Part shown: positions 4,334-21,140 of the stretch, one piece after another | Layout of the letters: each line of letters opens with the position of its first letter | Position numbering within the stretch: the first letter of the stretch is position 1 | NCBI GenBank assembly: GCA_043819795.1 | Contig: JBDREN010000192.1 | Span: forward strand, 1 to 21,285 | DNA: 21,285 nt | Source of the DNA: Elusimicrobiota bacterium | Lineage (GTDB): Bacteria > Elusimicrobiota > Elusimicrobia > UBA1565 | Direction: 5' to 3' | The notes under the pieces: generated by a model | The model's database searches: none | What the model was told of the DNA's origin: nothing | Seen by the model: only the letters and a program-made list of their open reading frames with translations | Program-made: the position numbers and the translations under genes

Positions 4334-4465
4334 CCAAAAAGGGGTAGGACGTATACTCGGCGTTTCCTCCCTTATCGGCCCATGCGCGGACCGCGTTCAT
4401 GGAATACAATAGATGATATAGCTGAGGCGCCGGAGCGCGAGCGCGCGGCCGGCGGCTTACCTACC

Positions 4466-6295
4466 ATGACCCAGGACAAGAAAGATACGGAGGCGTTGAT
4501 CGCCGAGCTTGACGCCGTTCTCGGAGCCGGCGTGGCGGACGTCACCATCCAGCCCGCTCCCGCCCCGAATCCCCCCGCGCGGCACGAGGCCGAGACCCCG
4601 GCCGCGGCCCCGGAAAAGACCGGGCCCGGGAGGATCCTCGTCGTGGACGACGACAAGAGCTACCGCGTCGTCGTCGAGGACATCCTGACCGAGCACGGCT
4701 ATGAGGTGGTCACGGCGCGCAACGGAGCCCGGGGGCTGATCAAGGCGCTCGATCAGAGGCCCGATCTGGTGCTTCTCGATTTCAACATGCCGGAGATGAA
4801 CGGCTACGAGGTCGTCCGGGAGCTGCGCAGCCGGGACGAGACGCGCAAGATTCCGATCGTCATGCTCTCCGGCGCGGTGAACATCGGCTACATCCAGGAG
4901 CTGAGGATCGATATCGACAGGTTCCTCGTCAAGCCCGTCTCGCCCGAGCAGCTCCTTGAGACGATCGCCGAGGCCCTCCAGGCCGGCTCGAGGCGGCTTC
5001 CGGCCGCGACGCCGGAGCTGGCGCCGGCCTCCGCGCCGGAGGTGCTCACGAAGCAAGAGGAGCTCCTCGTCGACATCGAAAAGGATGACGACCAGCGGGA
5101 GGAGGAGTACGGCCTGGAGGCCATGGCCAACGACTCGCCGCTCGTCAGCTGGGTCAACAAGATCCTGGTGCGGGCGGTGGAGCTGGGGGTCAGCGACATC
5201 CATTTCGAGCCGAAGGAGAAGGAGGTCGGCGTGCGCGTCCGCCTCAATGGCTCGCTCCAGCGGCTGTGCGCGCTTCCGGGCTCGCTGGCCGCGCGGCTGG
5301 CGGCGCGCCTGAAGATCATGTCGAACCTCGTGATAACCGAGAGGCGGCGCCCGCAGGACGGCCAGTTCCGGGCGACGGTCAACGGGAAGAAGATCGAGTT
5401 CCGCGTCAGCAGCATGCCCAGCACGAACGGCGAGAAGATCGTCCTGCGCGTGCTCGGCGGCACCAAGCTCAAGCCCGGCTTGGTCGAGCTGGGCCTCGCG
5501 GGTCGGGACCTCAAGTGCGTGGCGCGCGCCCTGCATATCCCGCACGGCCTGATCCTCGTCACGGGGCCCTCGGGGAGCGGCAAGACCACGAGCCTTTACA
5601 CGATGCTCAGCAAGCTCAACAAGCCGGACGTCAACGTGATGACGGCCGAGGAGCCGGTCGAGTACCGTCTCCCGGACATGACGCAGGTCGACATCAAGCC
5701 CGCCATCGGACTCACCTTCGAGTCCGTGCTGCGCTCCTTCCTGCGCCAGGACCCGGACATCATGCTCGTGGGGGAGATCCGCGACCTGGAGACGGCCGAT
5801 ATCGCGGTCAAGGCCTCGATAACCGGGCACCTGGTCCTATCTTCGCTGCACACCAACAGCGCCCCGTCCACGGTCGCCAGGCTCACCCAGATGGGGGTGC
5901 CGGGGTACCTGGTGGCGGCCAGCCTCAAGCTCGTCGTGGCCCAGCGCCTGCTCAAGGTGCTGTGCCCGGGCTGCAGGCGGCGGGAGCCCGTCTCCGCCGA
6001 TGAGAAGAGGCTGTTGTCAACCGATGAGACCAAGCGCCTGCAGGTGGTCTATTCCCCCGTCGGCTGCCCCGACTGCAACCACACGGGCTACACGGACCGC
6101 AAGGCCATCTTCGAGGTCATGCCCATCCGGACGGCGGCGATGCGCCAGCAGATCCTGTCCGCGGGGGGCGATGACCGGATCAGGGAGCAGGCCCTCAAGG
6201 AAGGGATGACGCCCCTGCGCGAGGCGGCGCTCCAGGCCGTGGCCAAGGGAGAGACCTCCCTGAGCGAGGCGCTCAAGATCATCCTCGCCGAGTGA
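4466..6295 (+). CDS. Response-regulator receiver domain fused to a GspE/PilB-family secretion/pilus ATPase
   Basis: REC motifs ILVVDDD, PDLVLLDFNMPEMNG and FLVKP. ATPase motifs SDIHFEP, RRPQDG, GPSGSGKTT, EEPVEY, RQDPDIMLVGEIRD, TGHLVLSSLH and the Cys tetrad CPGC..CPDC. The start is uncertain (4382 or 4466). Confidence 0.92.
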   Translation: MTQDKKDTEALIAELDAVLGAGVADVTIQPAPAPNPPARHEAETPAAAPEKTGPGRILVVDDDKSYRVVVEDILTEHGYEVVTARNGARGLIKALDQRPDLVLLDFNMPEMNGYEVVRELRSRDETRKIPIVMLSGAVNIGYIQELRIDIDRFLVKPVSPEQLLETIAEALQAGSRRLPAATPELAPASAPEVLTKQEELLVDIEKDDDQREEEYGLEAMANDSPLVSWVNKILVRAVELGVSDIHFEPKEKEVGVRVRLNGSLQRLCALPGSLAARLAARLKIMSNLVITERRRPQDGQFRATVNGKKIEFRVSSMPSTNGEKIVLRVLGGTKLKPGLVELGLAGRDLKCVARALHIPHGLILVTGPSGSGKTTSLYTMLSKLNKPDVNVMTAEEPVEYRLPDMTQVDIKPAIGLTFESVLRSFLRQDPDIMLVGEIRDLETADIAVKASITGHLVLSSLHTNSAPSTVARLTQMGVPGYLVAASLKLVVAQRLLKVLCPGCRRREPVSADEKRLLSTDETKRLQVVYSPVGCPDCNHTGYTDRKAIFEVMPIRTAAMRQQILSAGGDDRIREQALKEGMTPLREAALQAVAKGETSLSEALKIILAE

Positions 6296-9004: not shown

Positions 9005-11032
9005 CTAACGGGCATCCAGGTCGCGCAGGTAGCGCGTGATATTCGGCTGGTCGGGGTCGATCTCCAGGGATCTCCGCCAGGCCTCGCGGGCGGCTTCGGT
9101 CTTCCCCATGCCGGCGTAGGCCGTCCCGAGGTTATTGTGGGCCTTGGTGAAGAACGGGTTCAAGGCCGCCGCCTCGCGCAGATGCTTCAAGCCGTCCTCC
9201 CATCGCTTCTGTCCGACGCAGATGGCGCCCAAGTTGTTGTGAGCATGGGCATTGAGGGGGTTCTCCTCGATCTCACGGAGGAACGCCTGTTCCGCTCTTC
9301 GCGGATCGCCCTTGGCCAAGAGCTCGTTGCCCCGGTGAAAATGGGCGGTCGGGGCGGACAGGCGCTTCAGCTCGAGCATGGCGTGACCGAACCGGGGATC
9401 GTAATGAAGCGTGGAATAGAAACAGGCCGAGGCTCTTCGGTATTCCTTACGGTTCCTGAGTCCGATGCCGTACGCGAAATAGAGGTTCGCGAGGTTCTCC
9501 CGGCGACCGGCGGCCTTCTCCAGGGCGATCCCTTCTTCATAGGTCTGCCAGGCGCGTCCGGGGCGGCTCTCTATCAGGAAGTTGCCCATGTTCACGTATT
9601 CCCGAGCGTAGAGGCGCGTCTCTTCAAACAGAGTCACGTGACAGCAGATGTAGACGCAGCCGAACAGCAGGCCGCGCCAAAGTGTGCTCCGCCAACGCTT
9701 CTCGCGGACTGTTCCGAACCCATCTGCCAGAGCATAGGCGGCGAAGGGAAGGAGGAAAGGGACCACGGGCAGCCGGTACCGAGATGTGACGTAAAAAAGC
9801 ACAACAGAAAGCGCGTAGCCGCCGGCGAGCAGATACAGCAGGAGCGCCTCCCGCCATCGCCTCCAGGACGCGGCCACGCCCCATACGGCGAGGGGCAGGA
9901 GCGCTCCGAACGTGAACAGAGGCCAGCGCAGCAACGGCACGAACCGATCCCGCAAGAAATAGGTGTTGTAGTTGTCCGGCACCTCGTAGTAATTGACGAA
10001 GAGATTGATCTTCTTCCCCAGGAGCCTGAAGAAACGGCCCGGCTCCCGCCGGATGAAATCGAATCCTTTCTTGTACCAGAACCGGCCGATCTCGGAGGGC
10101 TTGAGCGGGCGCCCGACCTCCTTCTCGGCGTAGACGCGCGCGTCCCGCTCTTCGTGCTCCGGGATGGTCCGTATCATCGGCGCCGCTGCGTGGATCCCGG
10201 AGGCTTTAGGGTTGTTGCCGGCATAGAAGTTGATTCCCGCCGTGTAATTGGTCAGTACGAAGTCTCGGTCGGCCCAGTAGTTGCGCGCCGTGACGGGCGC
10301 CACCGCGAAGGCGAAGCCCAGGAGGAACAATCCGCCCAGCCGGGCGGCGGACTTGATGTCCCGCGTCCGCGCCCAGAGCCACAGGGGGATGAAGGGAACG
10401 GCCAAGAGGAAGTTGCCGCGGTTGAGGGCCGCGAGCCCCAGGCAAGCCCCGCCCGCCAGCGCCCAGCGCGCGCTCGCGGGCTCCGGGGCCCGCAGCAGGC
10501 ACAAGAGGGTGAGCGCTTCCAGGAAGACGGTCGTGCTCCCTTTGAGCAGCACGGCGTCGTAGAAGATGAACGGCTGGTAGAGCGCCGCCAGGACGGCCGT
10601 CAGCCAGCCCGCGGTCTCGCCGAACACGCGTCTGCCCACGAAATAGAGCAGCACGCAGGAGAACGAGCCGAGCAGGACCTGGATCCACTGCACGGCCCGG
10701 AGGCTGTGCCCGAACACGGAATAGACCAGACCCAGGAAGTAGGGATAAAGGGGGGATTGATAGAAGGCTCCTTTGCCGAGCCAGTCCCCCTGCGCGATGG
10801 CCCAGCCCCAGCGGTCGTAGGCCGCCGCGTCGATGTGAAGATGATCCCCGAAGGGGCTCTGGTTGAATTGGTGAAGGAAGATGAGGCGCAGGACGAGCGC
10901 GGTCAAAAATACCCCGGCCAGCCCGAACGGACGAGGCCGGTCCAGCAGCGCCTGCCGCGCCGCGGAGAGCGGGGCCAGGAAGTCCAGCGCTTGGCCTTCC
11001 GAAACCGGCGCGCGTTTCCTTTTCGGCTTCAT
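9005..11032 (-). CDS. GT-C (ArnT/PMT-like) membrane glycosyltransferase with C-terminal TPRs, paralog 2
   Basis: IDAAAY loop, YQSPLYPYFLG, many TMs, ARNY..GINFY.GNNP, RYRLP and TPR motifs AHNNLG. The ATG overlaps the upstream TGA. Confidence 0.88.
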   Translation of the reverse strand: MKPKRKRAPVSEGQALDFLAPLSAARQALLDRPRPFGLAGVFLTALVLRLIFLHQFNQSPFGDHLHIDAAAYDRWGWAIAQGDWLGKGAFYQSPLYPYFLGLVYSVFGHSLRAVQWIQVLLGSFSCVLLYFVGRRVFGETAGWLTAVLAALYQPFIFYDAVLLKGSTTVFLEALTLLCLLRAPEPASARWALAGGACLGLAALNRGNFLLAVPFIPLWLWARTRDIKSAARLGGLFLLGFAFAVAPVTARNYWADRDFVLTNYTAGINFYAGNNPKASGIHAAAPMIRTIPEHEERDARVYAEKEVGRPLKPSEIGRFWYKKGFDFIRREPGRFFRLLGKKINLFVNYYEVPDNYNTYFLRDRFVPLLRWPLFTFGALLPLAVWGVAASWRRWREALLLYLLAGGYALSVVLFYVTSRYRLPVVPFLLPFAAYALADGFGTVREKRWRSTLWRGLLFGCVYICCHVTLFEETRLYAREYVNMGNFLIESRPGRAWQTYEEGIALEKAAGRRENLANLYFAYGIGLRNRKEYRRASACFYSTLHYDPRFGHAMLELKRLSAPTAHFHRGNELLAKGDPRRAEQAFLREIEENPLNAHAHNNLGAICVGQKRWEDGLKHLREAAALNPFFTKAHNNLGTAYAGMGKTEAAREAWRRSLEIDPDQPNITRYLRDLDAR

Positions 11033-13038
11033 CGGGCTTCGAGGTCCCGCAGGTACTGCGCGATCCTTGGCTGCTCCGGGTCGATCTCCAAAGACCTCCG
11101 CCATGCCTCGCGGGCGGCTTGGGGGCGCCCCATGCTGGCCTCGGCCATCCCGATATTGTTGTGGGCTTTGGTGAAGAACGGGTTCAAGGCCGCCGCCTCC
11201 CGGAAATACGGCAAGGCCTCCGCCCAGCGTCTCCGGCTGAAGTGGATGCTCCCGAGGTTGTTGTGCGCCTCGGGATTAAAGGGGTTCTCCTCGATCTCCC
11301 GGATGAACTCACCCTCCGCCGCCCGCGGATCCCCCCGCCCCAAGAGCTCGTTGCCCCGGTGGAAATGCGCGGTCGGACGCATCAGGCGCTGCAGCTCCAG
11401 GGCCGCGAAGGCGAACTCCGGGTAGTAATGCAGCGTGGAGAAAAAGCAGGCAACGGCCCTCTTGGCCTGCCCCTGGTTGCGGAGCCCTATGCCGTAGGCG
11501 TAGTAGAGCTCCGGAAGCATGTCCTTCCGGCGGGAGGCTTTCTCCAAAGCAATCGCCTCCTCGTAGGCCTTCCAGGCCCCTTCCGGGTCCGTCCCGAGCA
11601 GGTAGTTCCCCAAAGTCACGTACTCCCGGGAGTAGGCGAACGCCGGCTCGAACATGGGGATGCGGCATGACAGGAAGGCGGCTGTCACCAGCCCGGCGCG
11701 GAACGTCAGGCCCATCCAGCGCTTCCGTCGTAGGGTCTCGAACGCCTCCACCAGGGCGTAGCCGGCGAAGGGGAGCAGGAACGGGACCACGGGCAGCCGG
11801 TACCGGGAGGCGATGTGGAAGAGGACGACGGAGAACGCGTAGACGCCGGCGAGCAGATGCAGCAGGAGCGCCTCCCGCCATCGCCTCCATGAGACGGCCA
11901 TGCCCAAGACGGCCAGGGGCATGAGCACGCCGAACGGGACCAGGGGCCAGCGCAGCAGCGGCACGAACCGGTCGCGCAGGAAGTAGATGTTGTAGTTGTC
12001 GGGCACCTCGTAGTGGTTGAAGAACAGCTTGATCTTCCGCCACGCGCGACGGAGGAAGAGGTCCGGCCGCTCGCGGATGGACCGCCAGCCCTTCGCGCGC
12101 CAGAAACGGTCGATCTCGGAGGGCATGAGCGTGCGTCCGGCCTCCTTCTCGGCGGACGCGCGCGCGTCCGCTTCCTCGTGCTCCGGGACCGTCCGGATCA
12201 GGGGCGGAGCCCAGTGGATCCCGGTGGCTCCGGGATGGTTGTCCGAGTAGAAGTTCACCCCGGCCGCGTAGGTGATGGGGACGAAGTCGCGGGCGGCCCA
12301 GTAGTTGCGCGCCGTGACGGGAGCGACCGCGAGCGCGAAGCCCAGAAGGAACGAGCCGCCCAGCCGGCCGGCGGACTTGGCGTCCCGGGTCCGCGCCCAG
12401 AGCCAGAGGGGGATGAAAGGGACGGCGAGCAGGAAGTTCCCGCGGTTGAGCGCCGCGATCCCCAGGCACGCCCCGGCCGCAAGGGCCCAGCGCGCGCGCG
12501 GAGGCTCCAGAGCGCGCAGCAGGCACAGGAGCGTCAGAGCCTCCAGGAAGATGGTCGTGCTTCCTTTCAGCAGCAGGCCGTCGTAGAAGATGAACGGCTG
12601 GTAGAGCGCCGCCAGGACGGCCGTCAGCCAGCCCGCGGCCTCGCCGAACACGCGTCTGGCCACGAAATAGAACAGCACGCAGGAGAACGACCCGATGAGG
12701 ACCTGGATCCACTGTACGGCCCGCAGGCTGTGCCCGAATACGGAATAGACGAGGCCCAGGAAGTAGGGGTAGAGGGGGGATTGATAGAAGGCTCCTTTGC
12801 CGAGCCAATCGCCCTGCGCGATGGCCCAGCCCCACCGGTCGTAGGCCGCCGCGTCGATGTGAAGATGATGCCCGAAGGGGCTTTGGTTGAACTGGTGAAG
12901 GAAGATGAGGCGCAGGACGAGAGCGGCGAGGAATATCCCCGCCAGCCCGAGCGGACGAGGCCGGTCCAGCAGCGCCCGCCGCGCCGCGGAGAGCCGCGGC
13001 AGGGCGCCCGGCTTAGCGATCTTCGGCTCAGGAGCCAT
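11029..13038 (-). CDS. GT-C (ArnT/PMT-like) membrane glycosyltransferase with C-terminal TPRs, paralog 1
   Basis: Same motif set as 9005-11032, with long identical peptide blocks. Confidence 0.88.
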   Translation of the reverse strand: MAPEPKIAKPGALPRLSAARRALLDRPRPLGLAGIFLAALVLRLIFLHQFNQSPFGHHLHIDAAAYDRWGWAIAQGDWLGKGAFYQSPLYPYFLGLVYSVFGHSLRAVQWIQVLIGSFSCVLFYFVARRVFGEAAGWLTAVLAALYQPFIFYDGLLLKGSTTIFLEALTLLCLLRALEPPRARWALAAGACLGIAALNRGNFLLAVPFIPLWLWARTRDAKSAGRLGGSFLLGFALAVAPVTARNYWAARDFVPITYAAGVNFYSDNHPGATGIHWAPPLIRTVPEHEEADARASAEKEAGRTLMPSEIDRFWRAKGWRSIRERPDLFLRRAWRKIKLFFNHYEVPDNYNIYFLRDRFVPLLRWPLVPFGVLMPLAVLGMAVSWRRWREALLLHLLAGVYAFSVVLFHIASRYRLPVVPFLLPFAGYALVEAFETLRRKRWMGLTFRAGLVTAAFLSCRIPMFEPAFAYSREYVTLGNYLLGTDPEGAWKAYEEAIALEKASRRKDMLPELYYAYGIGLRNQGQAKRAVACFFSTLHYYPEFAFAALELQRLMRPTAHFHRGNELLGRGDPRAAEGEFIREIEENPFNPEAHNNLGSIHFSRRRWAEALPYFREAAALNPFFTKAHNNIGMAEASMGRPQAAREAWRRSLEIDPEQPRIAQYLRDLEAR

Positions 13039-13059: not shown

Positions 13060-13638
13060 TCAACGAGGTCTCCCCGCGTTCCAGTTCTCGAGGACGCAGG
13101 GGTAGGACACCTCGACACGACGCGCGAATCGTCCACGGAGGAAGCGGTCCAGGCGGTCCTTGTCGGGATCGAGCGCCAGCAGGGCTTCCCCGAGCCTGGG
13201 CGAGAGGAGGACGGGGTGCCCCCCTTTGCCATCGTGGACGGGGATGATGGCCTCGACGCCCGCCTCGTCGGCTTCGCGCGCGCGGGTGAGGAGGTCCCTG
13301 AAGAGGGTTCCCTCCCAGACCGGCATGTCCACGTGGTGGAGGCACCCCCACTTCGTTAGAGGAGCCGCCTTGAGGGCCGCCTGGAGGGCGTGGAGGGGGG
13401 ATGCTCCCGGATCCACCGGCACCCACCTCACCCCCGGATCGACGCCGCGGCAGCGCTCCAGCCAGGCCTCCTGGACCGTGACCGCGACGGCCCCGGGCGC
13501 GAAGAGGCCCGTCAGGAACGCGACCTGTCTGCCCAGGAGGGTGCCGTCCTCGTGGGCGATCCACGCTTTGGGTCCCCCGGCCCTCTTGCCTTTGCCGGCG
13601 GCGAGCAGATAGGCCTGAGCCTCGTCCATCGGTTTCAC
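13060..13638 (-). CDS. mocA: MocA/YgfJ-like molybdenum cofactor cytidylyltransferase (MobA-like NTP transferase)
   Basis: Motifs LLAAGKGKRAGGPKA, VDMP and GKGGHPVLL, plus association with xdhC. Start is GTG 13638 or ATG 13629. Confidence 0.75.
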   Translation of the reverse strand: MKPMDEAQAYLLAAGKGKRAGGPKAWIAHEDGTLLGRQVAFLTGLFAPGAVAVTVQEAWLERCRGVDPGVRWVPVDPGASPLHALQAALKAAPLTKWGCLHHVDMPVWEGTLFRDLLTRAREADEAGVEAIIPVHDGKGGHPVLLSPRLGEALLALDPDKDRLDRFLRGRFARRVEVSYPCVLENWNAGRPR

Positions 13639-13749
13639 TGCGATCCCTTTACAGGGTTTAGGTCCCGGCCTCTACATTGCAGTCTTCGTTCATTACGTTG
13701 TCGTCAGTCCGTCACAATCCCTTTTCAGGGTTTCGGTCCGTCCCTTCCC
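13637..13749 (-). CRISPR. Degenerate CRISPR mini-array: two 39-nt repeats (13711-13749, 13637-13675) and one 35-nt spacer (13676-13710)
   Basis: R1 GGGAAGGGACGGACCGAAACCCTGAAAAGGGATTGTGAC and R2 GTAGAGGCCGGGACCTAAACCCTGTAAAGGGATCGCAGT are 26/39 identical, with a 21/23 core. Both have a CCCT-GNRA-AGGG hairpin followed by exactly 8 nt (ATTGTGAC in R1). The spacer is GGACTGACGACAACGTAATGAACGAAGACTGCAAT (16/35 GC). The array lies directly at the end of cas6. Confidence 0.8.
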
Positions 13750-14539
13750 CGGCGAACACGCGCACCTGCCCCATGCCCATTCCGGTCTTGATGCCCACGC
13801 CGGCCGCGGACGCCAGTCCAAGGAGCCTGCGCGCCGAGTCCTTCTTGGAGGCGTCGGCCAGGCTGATCCACGCGCAGCCCACGAACCCGGGGATCTCCCC
13901 CGCTTTGAGCCGGAAAAGCTTCGTTCGTCCCCTGAACCGGACGAGGCGCAGGGCGCGGCGCCAGTCGTCGGCGGTCAGCTCCGGAAGCTGGTCCGGGGAG
14001 AAGGCGTTCCAGCGCCGGTTCAGGCTGGAGAGCACCAGGCCCGGGTCGCAGAAGGGATAATAGGCGTCCCCCATCTTGAAGGCGGTGGGCGTCCGGAAAT
14101 CCAGGCGATAGACGGAGCGCGCGGGAGCGAGAAGCGAGGGGTCCGAGTAATCGGACACGCGGTAGAGTCCGGGAGCCTTGCGTCCCGTGGGCAGGACCGC
14201 GGCGATCTCGAGCCGGCCACGACCCAGGAGCACCCCTTTTTTCTCGGCCATGTGCACGGCGAGCGACGTGGAGAGGCATCTCGTCAGCGGAGCCGAGAGC
14301 GTGCCCACGGTGAGCCGCAGGCTCTCTCCCCGCTTGAGCACGGCGCCGTCCCGGCTCGGAGACTTCCCGTGGACCCATAGCGAGAAGGGCTTGATGCCCG
14401 CCGAATGGATGGACGACGCCAGAGCCCGGTCTTCGGATTGGATGAGGCGGAAGAGCAGGCCGTGCGCGGCTTCTCCCGCATGGGCGGGGACGTCCACGCG
14501 GTCCAGGGCCTTCAGAGTGACGGAGAAGAGTCCGATCAT
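13712..14539 (-). CDS. cas6: CRISPR-associated endoribonuclease Cas6
   Basis: Motifs HGLLFRLI..IH..KPFS, FRTPTAF, SL..RWNAF, PGFVG and C-terminal G-loop GVGIKTGMGMG. The ATG overlaps the csm5 TGA. Confidence 0.92.
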   Translation of the reverse strand: MIGLFSVTLKALDRVDVPAHAGEAAHGLLFRLIQSEDRALASSIHSAGIKPFSLWVHGKSPSRDGAVLKRGESLRLTVGTLSAPLTRCLSTSLAVHMAEKKGVLLGRGRLEIAAVLPTGRKAPGLYRVSDYSDPSLLAPARSVYRLDFRTPTAFKMGDAYYPFCDPGLVLSSLNRRWNAFSPDQLPELTADDWRRALRLVRFRGRTKLFRLKAGEIPGFVGCAWISLADASKKDSARRLLGLASAAGVGIKTGMGMGQVRVFAGEGTDRNPEKGL

Positions 14540-15516
14540 GACGCGGCGGGCTTCAGATACGCCCAGCCCAGGGGCCTCACTCCCGCCTTCTTGCGCGTCC
14601 ACGGAGGGTCGGCGCAGGTTATGTTGTGAAAACCTCCGAGCCTCGATACGGAGTATTCCTTGCGGCCGAGGGCCTTCGCGGCCGCCAAGAGCGACATGGC
14701 CCACGCGCCGGAGCCCTGGCCGAGGCGGATCGGACCGGATTGGGCCGAGACATGCATGGGCTCACCCTCCGCCCGGCAGATCTCCTGGGCGTACTCCCGG
14801 GCCCAGGCCAGCATGGACTCGAAGAAGTCCCCGCGCACGGATCTCGGGACCTTGATGTCCAGGTTGAAAGTGACGCCCGGCTTGATCACCTCCATGAGCG
14901 TGTGCGCCGCCTTGAGGGGGCCCTTGCCGGGCCTGGCGTCGGGCGACCTTTCGACCCTGACGATCGCGAGCGCGAGCGTCTTGTCCGCGGGCCGTCCGTC
15001 CGTGTCGGAGACGTCCAGCCAGCGCAGGGACCCGTCCCGCTCCGGCTTCCCGCCCAGCCACGCGGCCACCCTGTCCCGGAGCTCCCTGTCGTTGGCCGGC
15101 CATTGGATCCGTCCGGTCTTCAAGAGCCCGTAGGCCACGACGCCGAGCAAGGCGCCCTTGATGGATGAGCCGGGCACGACCGTCTTACCCGCGGATCTGA
15201 ACGCTTCACTGACCGTGATCCTGTCCGGCTCTTGGCGGGCGGTCTGGTCCACGGGCAGGGTGTAGAGGATGTGCCTGCGGGCGATGGCCTCGAGCTCCTT
15301 GTGGCCGCCGAGGTGCCGGGCCTCGGGCTTGGCCTTCCCGGCCAGCGACATGAAATCGTCGAACGCGCGGCTCTCCGGCTTGAAATCCTCGTCCTGGAAC
15401 AGGCCGTCCATGTGCAGCCTATGGAACGTTCCCCTGTCCAGGAGGTATTCCATGGGCGTGATCTCCCGGCCGGAGCCGATATGGACGAACGAATGAGTCG
15501 TCAAGGTGAGCTTCAT
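14536..15516 (-). CDS. csm5: Type III-A RAMP Csm5
   Basis: Motifs VHIGSG...EY, PGSSIKGA, VSD and RLGQGSG, and position after csm4. Confidence 0.88.
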   Translation of the reverse strand: MKLTLTTHSFVHIGSGREITPMEYLLDRGTFHRLHMDGLFQDEDFKPESRAFDDFMSLAGKAKPEARHLGGHKELEAIARRHILYTLPVDQTARQEPDRITVSEAFRSAGKTVVPGSSIKGALLGVVAYGLLKTGRIQWPANDRELRDRVAAWLGGKPERDGSLRWLDVSDTDGRPADKTLALAIVRVERSPDARPGKGPLKAAHTLMEVIKPGVTFNLDIKVPRSVRGDFFESMLAWAREYAQEICRAEGEPMHVSAQSGPIRLGQGSGAWAMSLLAAAKALGRKEYSVSRLGGFHNITCADPPWTRKKAGVRPLGWAYLKPAAS

Positions 15517-16451
15517 GACTCCGGGGGGATGCGGATCGGCAGACTGAGCGCCATGCCGGCGCGAAAGACCTTGTGCGCTTTCTTGAAGGCCCCGGGCGTC
15601 ACCTCCACGAGAGAGCCGGAGACGTCATCGACTCCGGCGAGGACCGCGCCTTCGGCGGCCATGCGGACGGGCCGCCACCTCAGGGGGATTCCGGCGTCCG
15701 GCGAGTGGATGTACCCCCGGCGGTCGACCAGCCTGTAGTACCCGTCGGCCAGGCGTTCGGCCTCGGTCTGGCTTCCGGGGTAGTAAAGAGAGAGGAGGAC
15801 CCGGTGGCTCGGCTCTCGGACCTCCCGGCCGAGCTCGAGCGTCTCCCAGGCCGGATACTTGAAAAGTCCGTGACCCACGGATCGCTCCCCGCCGATGCCT
15901 TCATCCGCCAATAGGCGCATGGCCGAGAATATACGGTCCCGGACCTTCTTGTCCTCGAACCGCGCGAGGAAATAGAACCCGCCGTCCGGAGGAGGACATA
16001 TCCTGCCCACGCCGAAGAGGCCGCCCGCGCTCCGCTGCCGGCCGTCTCCCGCGCGGCCCACGCTCGCCCTGGTCGCGTGATGGAGCCAATGGTCCAGACG
16101 TCTTTTCTCCACGTGATCGCCGTTGCGAGTCTCGCCCGAAAGGACCTTTTCGAAGGAGCGCAGCGTGAGCCAGCTGCGGTTGTCGGCCGAGACGTGCCTT
16201 GGGCACGGGAAGAAGAGGTCCGCGCCTTCATAGGGAAACGCCGAGGTCAGGGCGAACGGCCTCTCGCCTTTCTCGAGCCGCCGCAAGAGGATCACGAGCG
16301 AGCCTTCCCCGTACAGGAGCCTCCAGGCGGCGAAGACGGCCGCGCAGAGGGTGTCGGACGGGATATGCCCCATGCTCTCGTCGAGCATGTCCTGGCGCTC
16401 GCCCACATGGAGGGCGCCCCGGAAGGCCAGCCGGCAGAGGTTTAGCTCCAT
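15513..16451 (-). CDS. csm4: Type III-A RAMP Csm4
   Basis: Motifs LHVGE, SDTL..A, TSAFPY, LADEGIGGERSVGHG, LLSLYYP, RRGYI and EG..GSLVEVTP. TGATG overlap with csm3. Confidence 0.92.
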   Translation of the reverse strand: MELNLCRLAFRGALHVGERQDMLDESMGHIPSDTLCAAVFAAWRLLYGEGSLVILLRRLEKGERPFALTSAFPYEGADLFFPCPRHVSADNRSWLTLRSFEKVLSGETRNGDHVEKRRLDHWLHHATRASVGRAGDGRQRSAGGLFGVGRICPPPDGGFYFLARFEDKKVRDRIFSAMRLLADEGIGGERSVGHGLFKYPAWETLELGREVREPSHRVLLSLYYPGSQTEAERLADGYYRLVDRRGYIHSPDAGIPLRWRPVRMAAEGAVLAGVDDVSGSLVEVTPGAFKKAHKVFRAGMALSLPIRIPPES

Positions 16452-17230
16452 CAAGCGAGTCTGTTGAGCACCTGCTCCATGCCGGACACGAGCTTCTGAG
16501 GGGTGTCCAGGCCCTCGTTGACGGGAGGCTTTCCCAAGCTTCCCTTCTGGTAGTCCTCGGCTGAGTTCCAGCGCAGGGCCAGCGCGCCGACCTTGACCCT
16601 GCCGTACCCGCGAGAGCCCATGCCTCCCAGGTAGTCGTCTTCAAGCAGAGACAGCGCCTTGAAGATCTTCGGCACGAGCTCCGGCTTGTCCTCATCCGAG
16701 TAGACATTGAGCACCAGGCGCAGGCCGAACCTGGCTCCCGCCGGGACCCTTTCCACCTGCCTCAAGCCGCCGGAACGCGCCTTGCCTTGGACGCGGTCTA
16801 TCGCGGTCTCCGCCTTGACCTCGGTGAGCTCCAGCTCCAGGTTGCCGGCCTCGTGCAGCTGCTTGAGCTCCGCCTCGTTCAAGAGATAGGCGTCCGAGAC
16901 CATGAGCCGGGTCAAAGAGGGCACGTTGAACTCCGCGCCGCCCGGGGCCACGCCGAAGATCCGGCAGGAGGGGCACTTCCGGTAAGATGCGGAGTCCCGG
17001 CATTCATGCTTCCCGCCTTCGAACCGGCAGTCCTCCGAGTGCTCCAGGAGGCTCCTCAGCTTGCCCTTGATGGACGAGCCGGGGACGTAGGGCTTTCCCC
17101 ACGGGTCGCGTATGACGCTCAGGTCCACGCCGCTGATCTTCAAGCCCGTCTGGGGACCGCCCACGCGGATGCCGGTCTTGGCCTCGATCTCGCCTTCGAT
17201 GATCAGCTTCCCCAATAGTCGGCACTCCAT
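16451..17230 (-). CDS. csm3: Type III-A backbone RNase Csm3
   Basis: TGIRVGG...ISGVDLSVIRD with the catalytic Asp position retained, PYVPGSSIKGKLRSLLE, His/Cys Zn cluster HEC..CPSC, ETAIDR, RQVERVPAG and DDYLGGMGSRGYG. SD GGAGGAG. Confidence 0.96.
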   Translation of the reverse strand: MECRLLGKLIIEGEIEAKTGIRVGGPQTGLKISGVDLSVIRDPWGKPYVPGSSIKGKLRSLLEHSEDCRFEGGKHECRDSASYRKCPSCRIFGVAPGGAEFNVPSLTRLMVSDAYLLNEAELKQLHEAGNLELELTEVKAETAIDRVQGKARSGGLRQVERVPAGARFGLRLVLNVYSDEDKPELVPKIFKALSLLEDDYLGGMGSRGYGRVKVGALALRWNSAEDYQKGSLGKPPVNEGLDTPQKLVSGMEQVLNRLA

Positions 17231-17231
17231 T

Positions 17232-17774
17232 TCAGTCTCCTCCGTGGTAGCGGTGGTAGGCCACGATCGCTTCGACCAGGTCCTTCAACCCCTTGAAGTA
17301 GCCCGGATTCTTAGCGGTCCTCTGGAGCGCGATATCCAGATGACGCTGGAAGAATCTCACGGCCGGGCCGTGCCTGCCCGCGGCGTAGGCCAGCTTGGGC
17401 CTCAAGAGATGCAGCTTGTTGGGACTATGCGCCTTCATCCTTTGGATCTCGTCGAGCACGGCCCTGACCTGGGAGGTGCTCATGTTCATCCGCTGCAGCT
17501 GCTTGCCGATCTTGTCCGCCACCTCCACGATCTTCTGGGCGTTGCCCCGGAGGCAGAGGTCGATGTCCTGGAAGCTTGCCGCGAGCTGCGGCTCGCCCGG
17601 CGTGCCGCCGGGCTGGGACGGTCTCCCGTATCCTCCGCCGTGCTGAGGCGGTTTGCCGCCTCCGCCGCCGTGCTGGGACGGTTTCCCGTATCCGCCGCCG
17701 TGCTGAGGCGGTCTGCCGCCCCCGCCGCCGTGGTACGGCGGCTTGCCGCCTTTTCCGTGCCTTCCATCAGGCAT
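17232..17774 (-). CDS. csm2: Type III-A small subunit Csm2 with N-terminal Gly/Pro/His repeat extension
   Basis: Motifs STSQVR, LHLLRPKLAYAAGR and EAIVAYHRYHGG. SD AGGGAGG upstream of ATG 17774, which follows the cas10 stop by 3 nt. Confidence 0.93.
   Translation of the reverse strand: MPDGRHGKGGKPPYHGGGGGRPPQHGGGYGKPSQHGGGGGKPPQHGGGYGRPSQPGGTPGEPQLAASFQDIDLCLRGNAQKIVEVADKIGKQLQRMNMSTSQVRAVLDEIQRMKAHSPNKLHLLRPKLAYAAGRHGPAVRFFQRHLDIALQRTAKNPGYFKGLKDLVEAIVAYHRYHGGD
17605..17750 (-). repeat. About five 30-bp coding tandem repeats (alternating, 60-bp higher-order unit) in csm2
   Basis: Units start at 17611, 17641, 17671, 17701 and 17731, and encode GKPPYHGGGG/GRPPQHGGGY/GKPSQHGGGG/GKPPQHGGGY/GRPSQPGGTP. 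Confidence 0.9.
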
Positions 17775-17777
17775 GGT

Positions 17778-20195
17778 TCAGCCCTCCCTGCTCGTCGAAT
17801 AGCCCGCCCATCGGGCCATGAGTCCGAGATGGGGGACCAAGCCCGTGTCGGACGGCATCACGGTCTTCCGTAAAGCCTCCAGCTGGTGTTTGCGCTTCCT
17901 GTTCCGCTCTTTCATTCCGGCGAAAGCGTAGACCAGGCGCCAGATGCGGAATACCTCGGCCTGGCCGTCCTGGACCTTGAGCCTTTCATGCTCGGCCCGT
18001 CCGAGCGCCGTCAGAAGCGACCTCGGCACGGGGTCCTGTCCGTCCTCGGGCGCGACAAGCGCCTCCATGGCACGGGACACTTCCCGGCATTCGGCCAGCT
18101 CGTCCCAGGATAAGACCTCTTCCAGAAACGAGACCGCGTCCTTGCCTTCCCGCGCCTTGGCTTTCTCGAGAGCCTCGCACGCGGCCAGGGCCGCGATCCT
18201 GACGGGGAAACCCGTCGTCGGCGCCAGGAAGATGCCGGCAGAGAGCGTGAGCCGGCCGCTCGTGAGATCGCGGAGATCCTGCCTGAGCCTCGCGGCGATG
18301 ACGGGCAAGTCGCTCCAAGGGCCTAGCAGGAAGGCGTCGTCGCCGCCGGAATAGACCACGTGGGCGTGAGGAAACTCGCTCCAGAGCAGGTATTCGATCC
18401 TGGCCGTGAAGAACCAGTGGATGAGCGCGCTCAAGGTGGCGAAGCGGGAGATGGACGGACGCTCGATGCCTCGCTTGAGAGAGCTTTCCAGGTCGTCCAC
18501 GTCCAGCTTCAAGGCGCCCCATTTCTTGACCCCTTGGGCGCGGGCCGCGGTCTTGTCCAGGCTCAGCACGCCCCGATGGTCGTCGCGCGGCGCGTATCGG
18601 GCTATGAGCGCGGCCGGCCCGACCCAGTCCTCCCGGAAGCCGGCCTGGTTCACGGCCGTCTCGCCGCCGCTCAAGTCCAGCTCAAGGCCGAGCTTCTTGA
18701 GAGAACCGGCGAGCCCCGGGGCGGGAGTCCCGGAGCCCCTTGACGCGACGGGCCGGATGGAGATCGAGTCGGCTCCGTTGAGGGCCGAGGCCGCTTTTTC
18801 GAAGCCGGAGCACAGGACGCACTCCTGGCGAGGGTCGCCCGTGTCGGAGCCGCAGACGCGGCAGGGCCGGACTTTCTCTTCCACATCGTCCGGGCCGAGC
18901 AGCACCCTCCGGCGCCTGAAGTCCCTCAGGAGGGCCGAGCCCATCCTGGCCTTCTCGCGCGCCATGGGCGGGCCGAGGCGGCCCAGAGGCCCCTTGAAAG
19001 CGTCGCCGATGAATTCCGCGGCTTTTACGGGGGTCCAGGCCAGGCTGACTCCCAGGCGGTCGCGGTGCAGGCGCATGAGCGAGGTCTCGACCTCGTCGCG
19101 CGCGCGCTCCAGGGTCTCCCCGACGCCCGCGCTCCACGGGGCCAGGAGCATGAAATGCCCGCCGCCCATGAAGAGCACGTTCACGCAAGGCAGCGGCGGA
19201 TCGAATGAGCGAAGCACCCTTTCGGCCGCGGCCATGCAGAGCATGTCCAGATAGAAAGACCGGCCGCGAAGCCCCTTTATCGCGCCCTCGCCGCCCACCG
19301 AGAAGAGGAAGTCCTGGATGCCGGAAAGATCGCCTTTCACCAGGGCGGCCACCTCGACGGCCGTCTGGGTCCCGACAGCGGGCCTGCGGCGCGAAGGGAT
19401 GTGGTCGATGATGTCGTCGAGCTCCCCGGTGGAGAAGCCCCCGTCCAGGAGGCATGCGGCGAGCGCGGCCGTGAGGCGGAGATGGTGGTAGAGCGATACG
19501 TCGGGCATGTCGATGGCCGAGGAAGGCACGAAAAGCGCGTGCCGCTCGAGGGCTCGTAGAAGCGAGCGGGTGAGGAGGTCGAAGTCCCGGGAGACCGAAG
19601 GCGCCCGGGCCAGCGCTTCCAGGTCGGCCTTCAATCCGCTCCAGAGCACGCCGTAGCTCTCCTTCCCCGCCAGGGATTTCTCCTTGGAGTCCGCGGGCCA
19701 ATGCCGGGCCGGATCGAACTGCATGGCCATGAGCGGGAAGAAGGCCGGCTGAAGCTCGGCCGCGTCCTTGAACAGCGCGAAGGGGGAAACGAGCGGCTCG
19801 GTGCGGGACTCTCCCGGCGGGTCCTCCTCGGGCCTTTCCCTCCTTTCGCCCGAAGCCAGCCAGTCGGCCAGGACCAGGCACCGCACCAGCCGCCGGTCGC
19901 CTTCGGCCTCGCCGCAATTGTGGTGCCAGGCCGCCAAGTCCGCGGCGGCGGGGAAGCTCGACCCGAAGGCCGTCCGGATGAGGTGCTCGGTCCAGAGCGC
20001 GTGGCGGTGGGTCGGGTGGCGGCCCGCGGGGTCCCGGGGACAGAAAAGGGACTCCCGCCCGCTCGCCGAGGGATCGAGGGGGGCCGCTGCCCGCTGCCCG
20101 ATCTTCCCGGCGTCGTGCAGAAGCGCCGCCAGGATCAGGGAGTCCCGGTCTCGGGGCGCGGACGGCGCCGAGGCATCGCCGGACTGTTCGCTCAC
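17778..20195 (-). CDS. cas10: Type III-A Cas10/Csm1 with HD nuclease and Palm cyclase domains
   Basis: HD motifs ALLHDAGK, WHH and ADWLASGER. Palm1 motifs GDLSGIQDFLF, LRGRSFYL and GGGHF. Zn finger CRVC..CVLC. Palm2 motifs LKLDVDDL and YSGGDD. The GTG start overlaps the xdhC TGA. Confidence 0.97.
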   Translation of the reverse strand: MSEQSGDASAPSAPRDRDSLILAALLHDAGKIGQRAAAPLDPSASGRESLFCPRDPAGRHPTHRHALWTEHLIRTAFGSSFPAAADLAAWHHNCGEAEGDRRLVRCLVLADWLASGERRERPEEDPPGESRTEPLVSPFALFKDAAELQPAFFPLMAMQFDPARHWPADSKEKSLAGKESYGVLWSGLKADLEALARAPSVSRDFDLLTRSLLRALERHALFVPSSAIDMPDVSLYHHLRLTAALAACLLDGGFSTGELDDIIDHIPSRRRPAVGTQTAVEVAALVKGDLSGIQDFLFSVGGEGAIKGLRGRSFYLDMLCMAAAERVLRSFDPPLPCVNVLFMGGGHFMLLAPWSAGVGETLERARDEVETSLMRLHRDRLGVSLAWTPVKAAEFIGDAFKGPLGRLGPPMAREKARMGSALLRDFRRRRVLLGPDDVEEKVRPCRVCGSDTGDPRQECVLCSGFEKAASALNGADSISIRPVASRGSGTPAPGLAGSLKKLGLELDLSGGETAVNQAGFREDWVGPAALIARYAPRDDHRGVLSLDKTAARAQGVKKWGALKLDVDDLESSLKRGIERPSISRFATLSALIHWFFTARIEYLLWSEFPHAHVVYSGGDDAFLLGPWSDLPVIAARLRQDLRDLTSGRLTLSAGIFLAPTTGFPVRIAALAACEALEKAKAREGKDAVSFLEEVLSWDELAECREVSRAMEALVAPEDGQDPVPRSLLTALGRAEHERLKVQDGQAEVFRIWRLVYAFAGMKERNRKRKHQLEALRKTVMPSDTGLVPHLGLMARWAGYSTSREG

Positions 20196-21010
20196 CGTCT
20201 CCCCGCCGCGGGCGCGATGGGCTCGGCGGTCGTCCGAAGGCCCCATTCCTGAAGGAGCTCCGCGGCGACCGCCACCGCGATGATCTTCGGATCCTTGCTG
20301 GGCAAGGGCAGGCCGATGGGGCAGTGCATCTTCTCGTCCCAAAGCCGGTCCCAGTCCTCCGGCCCTTCGGAGAGCTCTTTGAGCTTGGCGCGGAAGGTCC
20401 GGCTCTTGTTCTGGGAGCCGATCACCCCGAGATAGCCCACCGGCTGCTTGAGGAAATGCCTGGCGAGCGGGAAATCCAGCTTATGGTCGTGGGTGAAGAC
20501 GCAGACGGCGTCGTCGGCGGTCCACCGGCGGGCCTCCGCGTATTCCACGGGGTCCACGCAGTGAGGCTCGACGTCGGCGGGCAGGCCCTCGCGGGAGGCC
20601 CACTCGGGCCGCTGGTCGATCACATGCACGTCGAACGGCATGCCGGAGAGGACCTGGGCCGTCGCGCGGCCGACGTGGCCTCCGCCGAAGAGATGGACGG
20701 CCTTGCGCCGCGGCACCGGCTCGAAGAAGACCTCCACGCGCCCCCCGCAGACCTGGCCTTCCTCCTTGGTGAGGTCGTAGTCCTCGATGTGCGGCTTGCC
20801 GTCCGCGTCTTTGAGCAGCTCCCGGGCGTGCTCCAGGACCTTCTTCTCGAGCGCCCCGCCGCCCACCGTCCCGTAGAACCGGTCCGATGTCGCCCACATG
20901 CGCGCGCCGACCCGCTGGGGCGCGCTTCCGGCGATCCTGACGACCGTGCACATCACCGCCGGGCGCGGCAGGTCCTTGTCGAAATCCCCGATGGTCTTGG
21001 AAGTCTCCAT
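20192..21010 (-). CDS. xdhC: XdhC/CoxI-family xanthine dehydrogenase accessory (Moco maturation) protein
   Basis: Motifs GSAPQRVGARM, GTVGGGALE, QVCGG, LFGGGHVG, THDHKLD, YLGVIGS, CPIGL and KDPKIIAVAVAAELL. SD GGGAGG. Confidence 0.93.
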   Translation of the reverse strand: METSKTIGDFDKDLPRPAVMCTVVRIAGSAPQRVGARMWATSDRFYGTVGGGALEKKVLEHARELLKDADGKPHIEDYDLTKEEGQVCGGRVEVFFEPVPRRKAVHLFGGGHVGRATAQVLSGMPFDVHVIDQRPEWASREGLPADVEPHCVDPVEYAEARRWTADDAVCVFTHDHKLDFPLARHFLKQPVGYLGVIGSQNKSRTFRAKLKELSEGPEDWDRLWDEKMHCPIGLPLPSKDPKIIAVAVAAELLQEWGLRTTAEPIAPAAGRR

Positions 21011-21014
21011 GCGG

Positions 21015-21092
21015 TCAACCTCCCACGATCAGGCCGAGCATGAGGAGCAGCGCCCCGGCGTTAAGCATCGGCAGGTCGGGCATCGCGCTCAT
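21015..21092 (-). CDS. Candidate 22-25 aa hydrophobic peptide MSAMPDLPMLNAGALLLMLGLIVGG
   Basis: Open frame from ATG 21092 (or 21083) to TGA 21015-21017. Its last codons form the xdhC SD. Confidence 0.35.
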   Translation of the reverse strand: MSAMPDLPMLNAGALLLMLGLIVGG

Positions 21093-21101
21093 TGTACTAT
21101 A
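21091..21101 (-). promoter_or_regulatory. Putative -10 element(s) for the xdhC-csm-mocA operon
   Basis: Overlapping TATAGT/TACAAT in the only AT-rich patch upstream of xdhC. No convincing -35. Confidence 0.4.
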
Positions 21102-21140
21102 AACCCGCCGCCGCCCGTCGCCGACAGGCCAACGGAGGGG

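Follow-up and report, generated by a model that had tools for sequence, protein, structure and literature searches.

A type III-A Csm cassette in an unusual setting between xdhC and a mocA-like gene of an Elusimicrobiota bacterium

Results

Gene organization of the locus

The window analysed here is one whole contig (C192; 21,285 nucleotides, nt) of a metagenome-assembled genome of an Elusimicrobiota bacterium (241 contigs, 67% GC, 90.3% complete). It carries a type III-A CRISPR-Cas cassette between xdhC and a mocA-like gene. The order on the minus strand is xdhC, cas10, csm2, csm3, csm4, csm5, cas6, two repeats with one spacer, and the mocA-like gene (Table 1). Junctions between the protein genes from xdhC to cas6 ranged from -4 to +3 nt. 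Overlaps of 4 nt were observed at csm3/csm4, csm4/csm5, csm5/cas6 and xdhC/cas10, where the cas10 GTG start overlaps the xdhC stop; the gaps at cas10-csm2 and csm2-csm3 were 3 nt and 1 nt. From the xdhC stop to the HD motif, the cas10 GTG is the sole in-frame ATG, GTG or TTG. The end of cas6 is separated by 73 nt from the GTG of the mocA-like gene at 13638, and an alternative ATG start lies at 13629. Coordinates and family scans confirmed the layout and tight junctions described in an earlier sequence-only reading of this DNA (hereafter the initial annotation).

A site scan found no promoter-like or terminator-like site at the operon junctions, in agreement with the earlier remark that they leave no space for a promoter, leader or terminator; but such spacing is normal for type III. 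A single transcript probably extends from xdhC to the mocA-like gene. Junction gaps in two other Csm loci ranged from -44 to +35, and type III systems typically lack long untranslated regions according to the available part of the survey by Shmakov et al. (10.1101/2023.03.03.530964). Tight gene coupling is thus normal for type III operons and needs no special explanation.

XdhC, Cas10/Csm1, Csm2, Csm3 and Csm4 passed their NCBIfam cut-offs, and Csm5 and Cas6 fell just below. The type III-A core was present: Cas10/Csm1, the subtype signature Csm2, Csm3-5, and the HD, GGDD and Csm3 aspartate motifs. The invariant D36 of Csm3 is the residue that we take to be the RNase catalytic aspartate. In the second palm of Cas10, the Gly following the DxD(D/N)L motif is replaced by Glu. 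Scanning of 16 open reading frames (ORFs) of the window revealed no integrase or transposase. The N-terminal extension of Csm2 (17604-17753) consists of approximately four 10-residue repeats of Gly, Pro, Gln, His and Tyr; it is of low complexity and possibly RNA-binding or disordered.

Table 1. Features of the cassette and its flanking genes (window coordinates)
Feature	Position	Strand	Evidence and remarks
xdhC	20192..21010	-	TIGR02964 184.9 bits (cut-off 161.6); XdhC_CoxI and XdhC_C domains; native molybdoenzyme maturation chaperone
cas10/csm1	17778..20195	-	TIGR02578 472 bits (cut-off 170); HD (H27 D28) and GGDD (617-620) intact
csm2	17232..17774	-	TIGR01870 and PF03750; glycine-rich N-terminal extension of 10-residue repeats
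csm3	16451..17230	-	TIGR02582 199.9 bits; D36 invariant in alignment
csm4	15513..16454	-	TIGR01903 172.6 bits
csm5 (divergent)	14536..15516	-	TIGR01899 34.2 bits (below cut-off 38.3); PADLOC Csm5, E 7e-14; Pfam RAMPs passed
cas6	13712..14539	-	PF10040; PADLOC Cas6; NCBIfam 53.9 bits (below cut-off 58.65); last 12 codons and stop inside repeat 1
CRISPR repeat 1	13711..13747	-	4-bp hairpin, then 8-nt handle (13718-13711) holding the cas6 TGA (13714-13712)
Single spacer, 37 nt	13674..13710	-	AT-rich; GC far below the 67% of the genome
CRISPR repeat 2 (terminal, degenerate 3' end)	13637..13673	-	Hairpin as in repeat 1; final 2 nt overlap the mocA-like GTG
mocA-like NTP transferase gene, native	13060..13638	-	PF12804; top cluster in Atlas auto-named MocA family
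Candidate operon promoter, -10-like AT-rich box (putative)	21091..21103	-	Seen in sequence upstream of xdhC; not called by sigma-70 scan

The xdhC-mocA pair in relatives

To place the flanking genes, loci from an XdhC search were compared. The search covered 61 genomes, including the one studied here, and 52 matched; the 30 best loci, 29 of them non-self, were examined. A mocA homologue was found downstream of xdhC in 26 of the 29 non-self loci, directly adjacent in 25 and with a 4-nt overlap in 16 of the 26. Two of the remaining three loci reach a contig edge, and the third has a more distant XdhC. No cas gene was matched in any of the 29 loci, nor in the wider surroundings of nine of them that were read over 14-20 kb. 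XdhC orthologues in relatives were 48-60% identical. The order xdhC-mocA-orf-MATE facing glgC in a member of the same family (G003) matches the outer order in the window, where mocA and MATE likewise face glgC. These findings support the clean insertion into a molybdenum cofactor (Moco) operon that the initial annotation had listed as one option. The xdhC-mocA pair of two relatives is flanked by genes for a nucleoside/guanine-deaminase-family protein, an amidohydrolase and allantoicase.

The product of the last gene, annotated as MocA, is an NTP_transf_3 protein encoded beside xdhC; that much of the call stands. Its score on TIGR03310 (molybdopterin cytosine dinucleotide synthase) was 31.4 bits against a cut-off of 186.45, and the G003 orthologue was also below (37.2). 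A PDB sequence search revealed no relative at E 0.001. We therefore describe it as a MobA/MocA-family nucleoside triphosphate (NTP) transferase (PF12804) that is MocA-like by context only, because of its NTP_transf_3 fold, its xdhC neighbour, and a genome with xanthine-oxidase-family clients. Three large subunits of that family are encoded on other contigs of the same genome, and xdhC and the mocA-like gene were each found in single copy. Pairs in which a mocA homologue comes immediately after an xdhC homologue, in some cases away from the enzyme genes, are described in the available part of PMC2997495 (Bacillus subtilis pucAB, A. nicotinovorans, O. carboxidovorans). In contrast to those pairs, the present one is split by a 6.5-kb CRISPR cassette, and its second protein scores far under the MocA cut-off.

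Of 24 mocA starts that could be placed in relatives, 20 lie 7-8 codons before an LA[AG][AG] motif; in the window the distance is 8 codons from the ATG at 13629 and 11 from the GTG at 13638. GTGA occurs both at the xdhC/cas10 overlap and at the mocA-like GTG, and was considered as a target-site duplication. It is probably a chance match, as relatives' starts correspond to the ATG at 13629. In the one relative with a gap between xdhC and mocA (G006, L058:5760-6640), this junction holds genes for a DhiT-type toxin and a DUF2442 protein, both in the opposite orientation. This is an independent and unrelated defence-type insertion, and the junction therefore tolerates insertions. Two tandem paralogues encoding PMT_2 glycosyltransferase and TPR proteins (73% identical) lie between mocA and MATE in the window (9005-13038). 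They were not at this place in G003 or G002; therefore the region has taken further insertions.

Origin and distribution of the Csm cassette

Among 101 genomes of the order, Csm1-type Cas10 (TIGR02578) scored above the cut-off in the present one only. Csm3, searched with a sister sequence, was detected in none of 16 family genomes and in 3 of 393 class genomes (own included); of 401 phylum genomes sampled, 13 matched Csm3. The nearest Cas10 (P0002) was 46% identical; others, some named from Omnitrophica, WOR-3 and Ratteibacteria, were 32-36% identical. FastTree trees were built from subsets of the matches (43 rows for Cas10 and 44 for Csm3). P0001 and P0002 formed a long-stemmed pair in the Cas10 tree (stem 1.23), and the Csm3 tree contained a matching clade of three. 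The cassette is evidently a foreign, lineage-specific insertion, as judged from these distributions. The sister III-A system of P0002, P0068 and P0189 (each with a longest contig of 14,727 nt) has a Cas10, P0002, of only 640 residues; its HD motif is intact, its GGDD motif is altered, and the zinc-finger cysteines and a first-palm stretch are missing. This system is probably a cyclase-dead III-A variant, and the broken GGDD and large deletions of P0002 would fit a lineage losing signalling.

The initial annotation had also raised the possibility that XdhC and the MocA-like nucleotidyltransferase were co-opted as ancillary proteins of type III systems. Making or sensing a nucleotide messenger would be one conceivable role. 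Both genes tightly flank the cassette, and none of the known effectors tested was found. However, the pair is ancestral and Csm-free across the order, and neither xdhC nor mocA was found beside any of seven other Csm loci examined (two of them short contigs; the nearest sister locus, P0002, lies outside the seven). In FastTree trees, XdhC and the MocA-like protein grouped with orthologues of the order or family on branches of 0.23 and 0.39 (medians 0.17 and 0.30). Both proteins are thus placed among orthologues of Csm-free genomes, with branches of ordinary length. Of 38 columns that are invariant in ten relatives, the MocA-like protein retains 36; neither protein had a PADLOC match, and the single copies serve a genome with three client enzymes. 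Co-option is largely refuted by these data, and we regard it as very improbable. A lineage-specific insertion is preferred because xdhC and mocA are contiguous in relatives without cas genes, Csm1-type Cas10 is confined to this genome within the order, the flanking proteins are ordinary orthologues, and three clients are encoded. The initial annotation had itself named contiguous xdhC-mocA pairs without a recurring Csm association as evidence against its more exotic options, and this is the pattern seen in relatives.

Overlap of the mini-array with cas6

The two repeats, spaced by 74 nt, were identical at 21 of 23 core positions and 4 of 14 end positions (25/37 overall). None of 100 dinucleotide shuffles of the window yielded a comparable pair. 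Rfam model CRISPR-DR36 matched positions 13732-13711 weakly (18.6 bits, gathering score 38, E 2.1) and reached the 3' end of the model; this sub-threshold match tentatively sets the repeat orientation and places the 3' end at 13711. Both repeats fold into the same 4-bp hairpin, with stability not above that of shuffles (z -1.13 and +0.60). Repeat relatives were found in neither metagenome nor viral contigs, and in 400 other phylum genomes there were 7 single one-mismatch matches, versus 2 for the control. The array overlaps genes on both sides, so that repeat 1 covers the end of cas6 and repeat 2 touches the mocA-like GTG. The mocA-like gene does directly follow the mini-array, as had been annotated; however, the array is not intergenic.

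The cas6 stop codon lies within the handle of repeat 1, on the 3' side of the hairpin. Cas6 generally cleaves at the 3' base of the hairpin, leaving an 8-nt handle. The predicted cut in repeat 1, at 13719|13718, would fall 4 nt upstream of the cas6 stop and give a non-stop cas6 mRNA. The predicted cut in repeat 2, at 13645|13644, would detach the mocA-like message with a leader of 6 nt (GTG start) or 15 nt (ATG start). The genome contains smpB; no transfer-messenger RNA (tmRNA) was detected in the 90.3% complete assembly. In the two nearest Cas6 sequences (53% and 59% identical), the glycine loop is followed by a common 8-residue tail, which is shorter than and unrelated to the tail here. The window Cas6 has probably lost the C-terminus found in these sister proteins.

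This arrangement could have been selected. Each CRISPR RNA (crRNA) made would then destroy one cas6 message through non-stop decay, capping Cas6 and crRNA, and the cut in repeat 2 would insulate mocA. The position of the TGA within the handle, the common hairpin with repeat differences mostly outside the core, the presence of smpB, the intact ORFs, and changes in run X2 that lean synonymous (see below) are in line with this. However, the layout was observed once and is not conserved, given the ordinary tails of the two nearest Cas6 sequences. The divergence of the repeat ends fits deletion junctions and the usual decay of terminal repeats equally well, and the hairpin stabilities and the failure to find tmRNA in the assembly lend no support. 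We consider selection for this layout unlikely. The same holds, in our estimate, for its wider form, in which a leaderless III-A system would draw its sole crRNA from its own mRNA, with cas6 under self-limiting feedback and the repeats acting as RNA-processing insulators that free mocA and tie immunity to Moco/purine regulation. The cas6-into-repeat layout is most likely a deletion scar.

Missing modules and spacer target

Searches for cas1, cas2, Csm6-HEPN, Csx1-HEPN and Card1-CARF in the 90.3% complete assembly found none of them, and positive controls were detected. Four effectors from related loci had no tblastn match in the genome. The effector search covered the families named here and below; membrane, protease and other effectors fall outside it. 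No second RAMP locus and no further CRISPR array was present in the assembly. No leader was found, the end of cas6 lying inside repeat 1. The module had been annotated as complete, which is valid for the Csm core and Cas6 only, as cas1/cas2, a leader and a Csm6-type effector were not found. An adaptation module is optional in many type III loci. Genomes G107 (96% complete) and G157 (98% complete) of the same phylum also have Csm without detectable cas1/cas2. In G107 (L052:8261-15604), a related Csm operon is accompanied by Csm6 and a short array of approximately three repeats; no cas1 was found. The intact Cas10 HD domain would allow effector-free action. Effector-less type III loci are known, including 133 that are cyclase-positive and HD-lacking (PMC11229360, available part).

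A further option in the initial annotation was that the Csm complex is domesticated for metabolic regulation; in its sharper form, a self-targeting crRNA would regulate purine/Moco functions. The probable co-transcription with Moco genes, the one fixed spacer and the lack of adaptation genes would suit such a role. However, the best match of the spacer in the genome was 25/37, which was equalled by 3 of 40 shuffles. Weak matches (at least 22 positions) were in excess (123, shuffle mean 36), but came largely from repetitive genes rich in Asp. Predicted duplexes of the spacer with the operon and the three xdh loci had energies no better than those of shuffles; the duplex with the operon (-26.5 kcal/mol) was weaker than all 15 shuffles. 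The longest exact match elsewhere in the window was 9 nt. The spacer is also AT-rich and foreign-looking. Viral contigs had no exact match to three sub-patterns of the spacer, and phages and plasmids gave only matches with E 2-6. With no target beyond shuffle level in the genome, the operon or the xdh loci, domestication appears highly unlikely.

Assembly and population evidence

Four DNA runs were compared as contigs over the locus. Run X1 gave eight pieces among those listed, seven of them identical to the window, over the glycosyltransferase genes, csm4, cas10 and xdhC (depth 2.4-5.9). This run may be related to the assembly source and is then not independent. Run X2 gave eight pieces among those listed, 93-97% identical, over cas6, csm5, csm4 and cas10. 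The eight longest X2 pieces are all within the cassette; because a mostly-Csm query had retrieved this run, their position was not used as a sign of another host. Among the 39 X2 changes in 40 listed of 134 differences, at low depth, 18 were synonymous, 16 non-synonymous and none a stop (34 codons), and 22 of the 39 were in third positions. On coverage across the junctions, which the initial annotation had named as a check, near-identical X1 pieces lie in cas10 and in xdhC, and no piece among those listed bridges either junction.

The locus could in part be an artefact of assembly or binning. The array would then have collapsed, or cas1/cas2, effectors and the main array would be on unbinned contigs, and a normal adaptive III-A system would lie between xdhC and mocA. 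This would be consistent with the fragmented and incomplete assembly, the lack of a bridging contig among the listed pieces, and intact ORFs apparently under selection; effector sharing in trans is also suggested in the available part of PMC11229360. However, no repeat able to cause a misjoin was found at the xdhC-cas10 junction, and the near-identical X1 pieces are at similar depth. Because cas6 runs into repeat 1, there would be no leader space at any array length, and other cas1-less Csm genomes occur in the phylum. Misassembly or array collapse is unlikely, and we give the artefact explanation as a whole little weight.

Tandem GC-rich palindromic repeats of approximately 44-50 nt were observed at the contig end (21146-21285); their core motif had 29 matches, both strands counted, on 19 contigs. 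They are likely a family resembling repetitive extragenic palindromes that breaks the assembly. A 25-codon hydrophobic ORF (21015-21092, minus strand) stops 4 nt upstream of xdhC; it may be spurious, because its ATG overlaps the putative -10 box. At 4382-6295, the window encodes a PilB/GspE-type ATPase that carries a response-regulator receiver domain fused at its N-terminus.

Discussion

We favour the explanation, with a probability of roughly 0.7, that a type III-A cassette inserted into a native xdhC-mocA pair and was later stripped to a fixed-guide system. A Csm-Cas6 cassette from another lineage would have entered once, in this lineage only, at the xdhC-mocA start/stop overlap, as indicated by synteny. 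At the xdhC stop, cas10 would then have assumed the coupled start, which would place the cassette under the xdhC promoter. A later deletion at the 3' end may have removed the native cas6 tail, the leader and most of the array, possibly together with effector or adaptation genes. It would have fused cas6 to the final repeat-spacer-terminal-repeat unit. This deletion is proposed because of the sister Cas6 tails and the asymmetry of the repeats. According to the motifs present, Cas6 would excise two hairpins from the operon mRNA to give one crRNA, and the loaded Csm complex would cut foreign RNA via Csm3 and nick single-stranded DNA via the Cas10 HD domain. Any cyclic oligoadenylate made would have no responder among the genes found in the assembly. 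XdhC and the MocA-like protein presumably retain Moco maturation for the three xanthine-oxidase-family enzymes encoded elsewhere. Non-stop cas6 mRNA and the detachment of mocA on a leader of 6-15 nt would be side effects of the Cas6 cuts.

Several points weigh against this explanation. All six cas ORFs are intact, and the X2 changes suggest modest purifying selection, which is hardly explained by a one-spacer relic. No piece among those listed bridges the xdhC-cas10 or the cas6-mocA junction. Searches of the assembly for SAVED, APE2256 and DUF6602 were blank, but their positive controls gave no signal either; given 90.3% completeness, arrays and effectors may have escaped assembly. The cas genes show host-like codon usage (codon adaptation index percentile 21-42), so that the cassette is not obviously recent; either it entered long ago or it came from a GC-rich donor. 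The genomes compared all lie outside the genus of this bacterium.

The locus resembles the type III-A Cas10 clade of Omnitrophica-, WOR-3- and Ratteibacteria-named sequences and G107 in its cas10-csm2-csm3-csm4-csm5 order, HD and GGDD motifs, tight coupling, and hairpin repeat with a similar 3' handle. It differs in that cas1/cas2, a leader and a CARF effector are absent from the locus, whereas G107 has Csm6, G157 a CARF gene and G362 Card1. Its cas6 is last in order and of another lineage than those of G107, G188 and G362, and it has one spacer and lies inside a host operon. The type III mini-arrays described by Shmakov et al. (10.1101/2023.03.03.530964, available part) likewise have one spacer between two repeats beside a cas operon, with a degenerate distal repeat and no detectable target, and are read there as degraded repeats. 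Here, by contrast, a repeat overlaps the cas6 ORF; the survey could not count such a case because repeats overlapping ORFs were dropped. Regulatory mini-arrays for CRISPR RNA-like RNA (crlRNA) in types I-B, I-D, I-E and I-F1 are also single-spacer arrays beside cas genes, as far as their available descriptions go. Those match cas promoter DNA next to a protospacer adjacent motif, whereas here there was no self match and Csm targets RNA. In the titles and abstract openings covered, with few subscription papers among them, no Csm-xdhC arrangement, Cas6 cutting of its own mRNA, or overlap of cas6 with the first repeat was described.

The locus is a type III-A member whose setting is unusual but incidental, and its one quirk is at the cas6 end. 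On the favoured reading, XdhC and MocA drop out as candidate ancillary proteins of type III systems. Of modest importance, the locus would then cleanly illustrate how a CRISPR-Cas module enters a housekeeping operon via a start/stop overlap, and how a type III locus shrinks to a one-spacer remnant. If the stop codon within the handle is functional, it would represent a route of post-transcriptional CRISPR-Cas autoregulation that mini-array surveys excluding ORF-overlapping repeats would miss by design.

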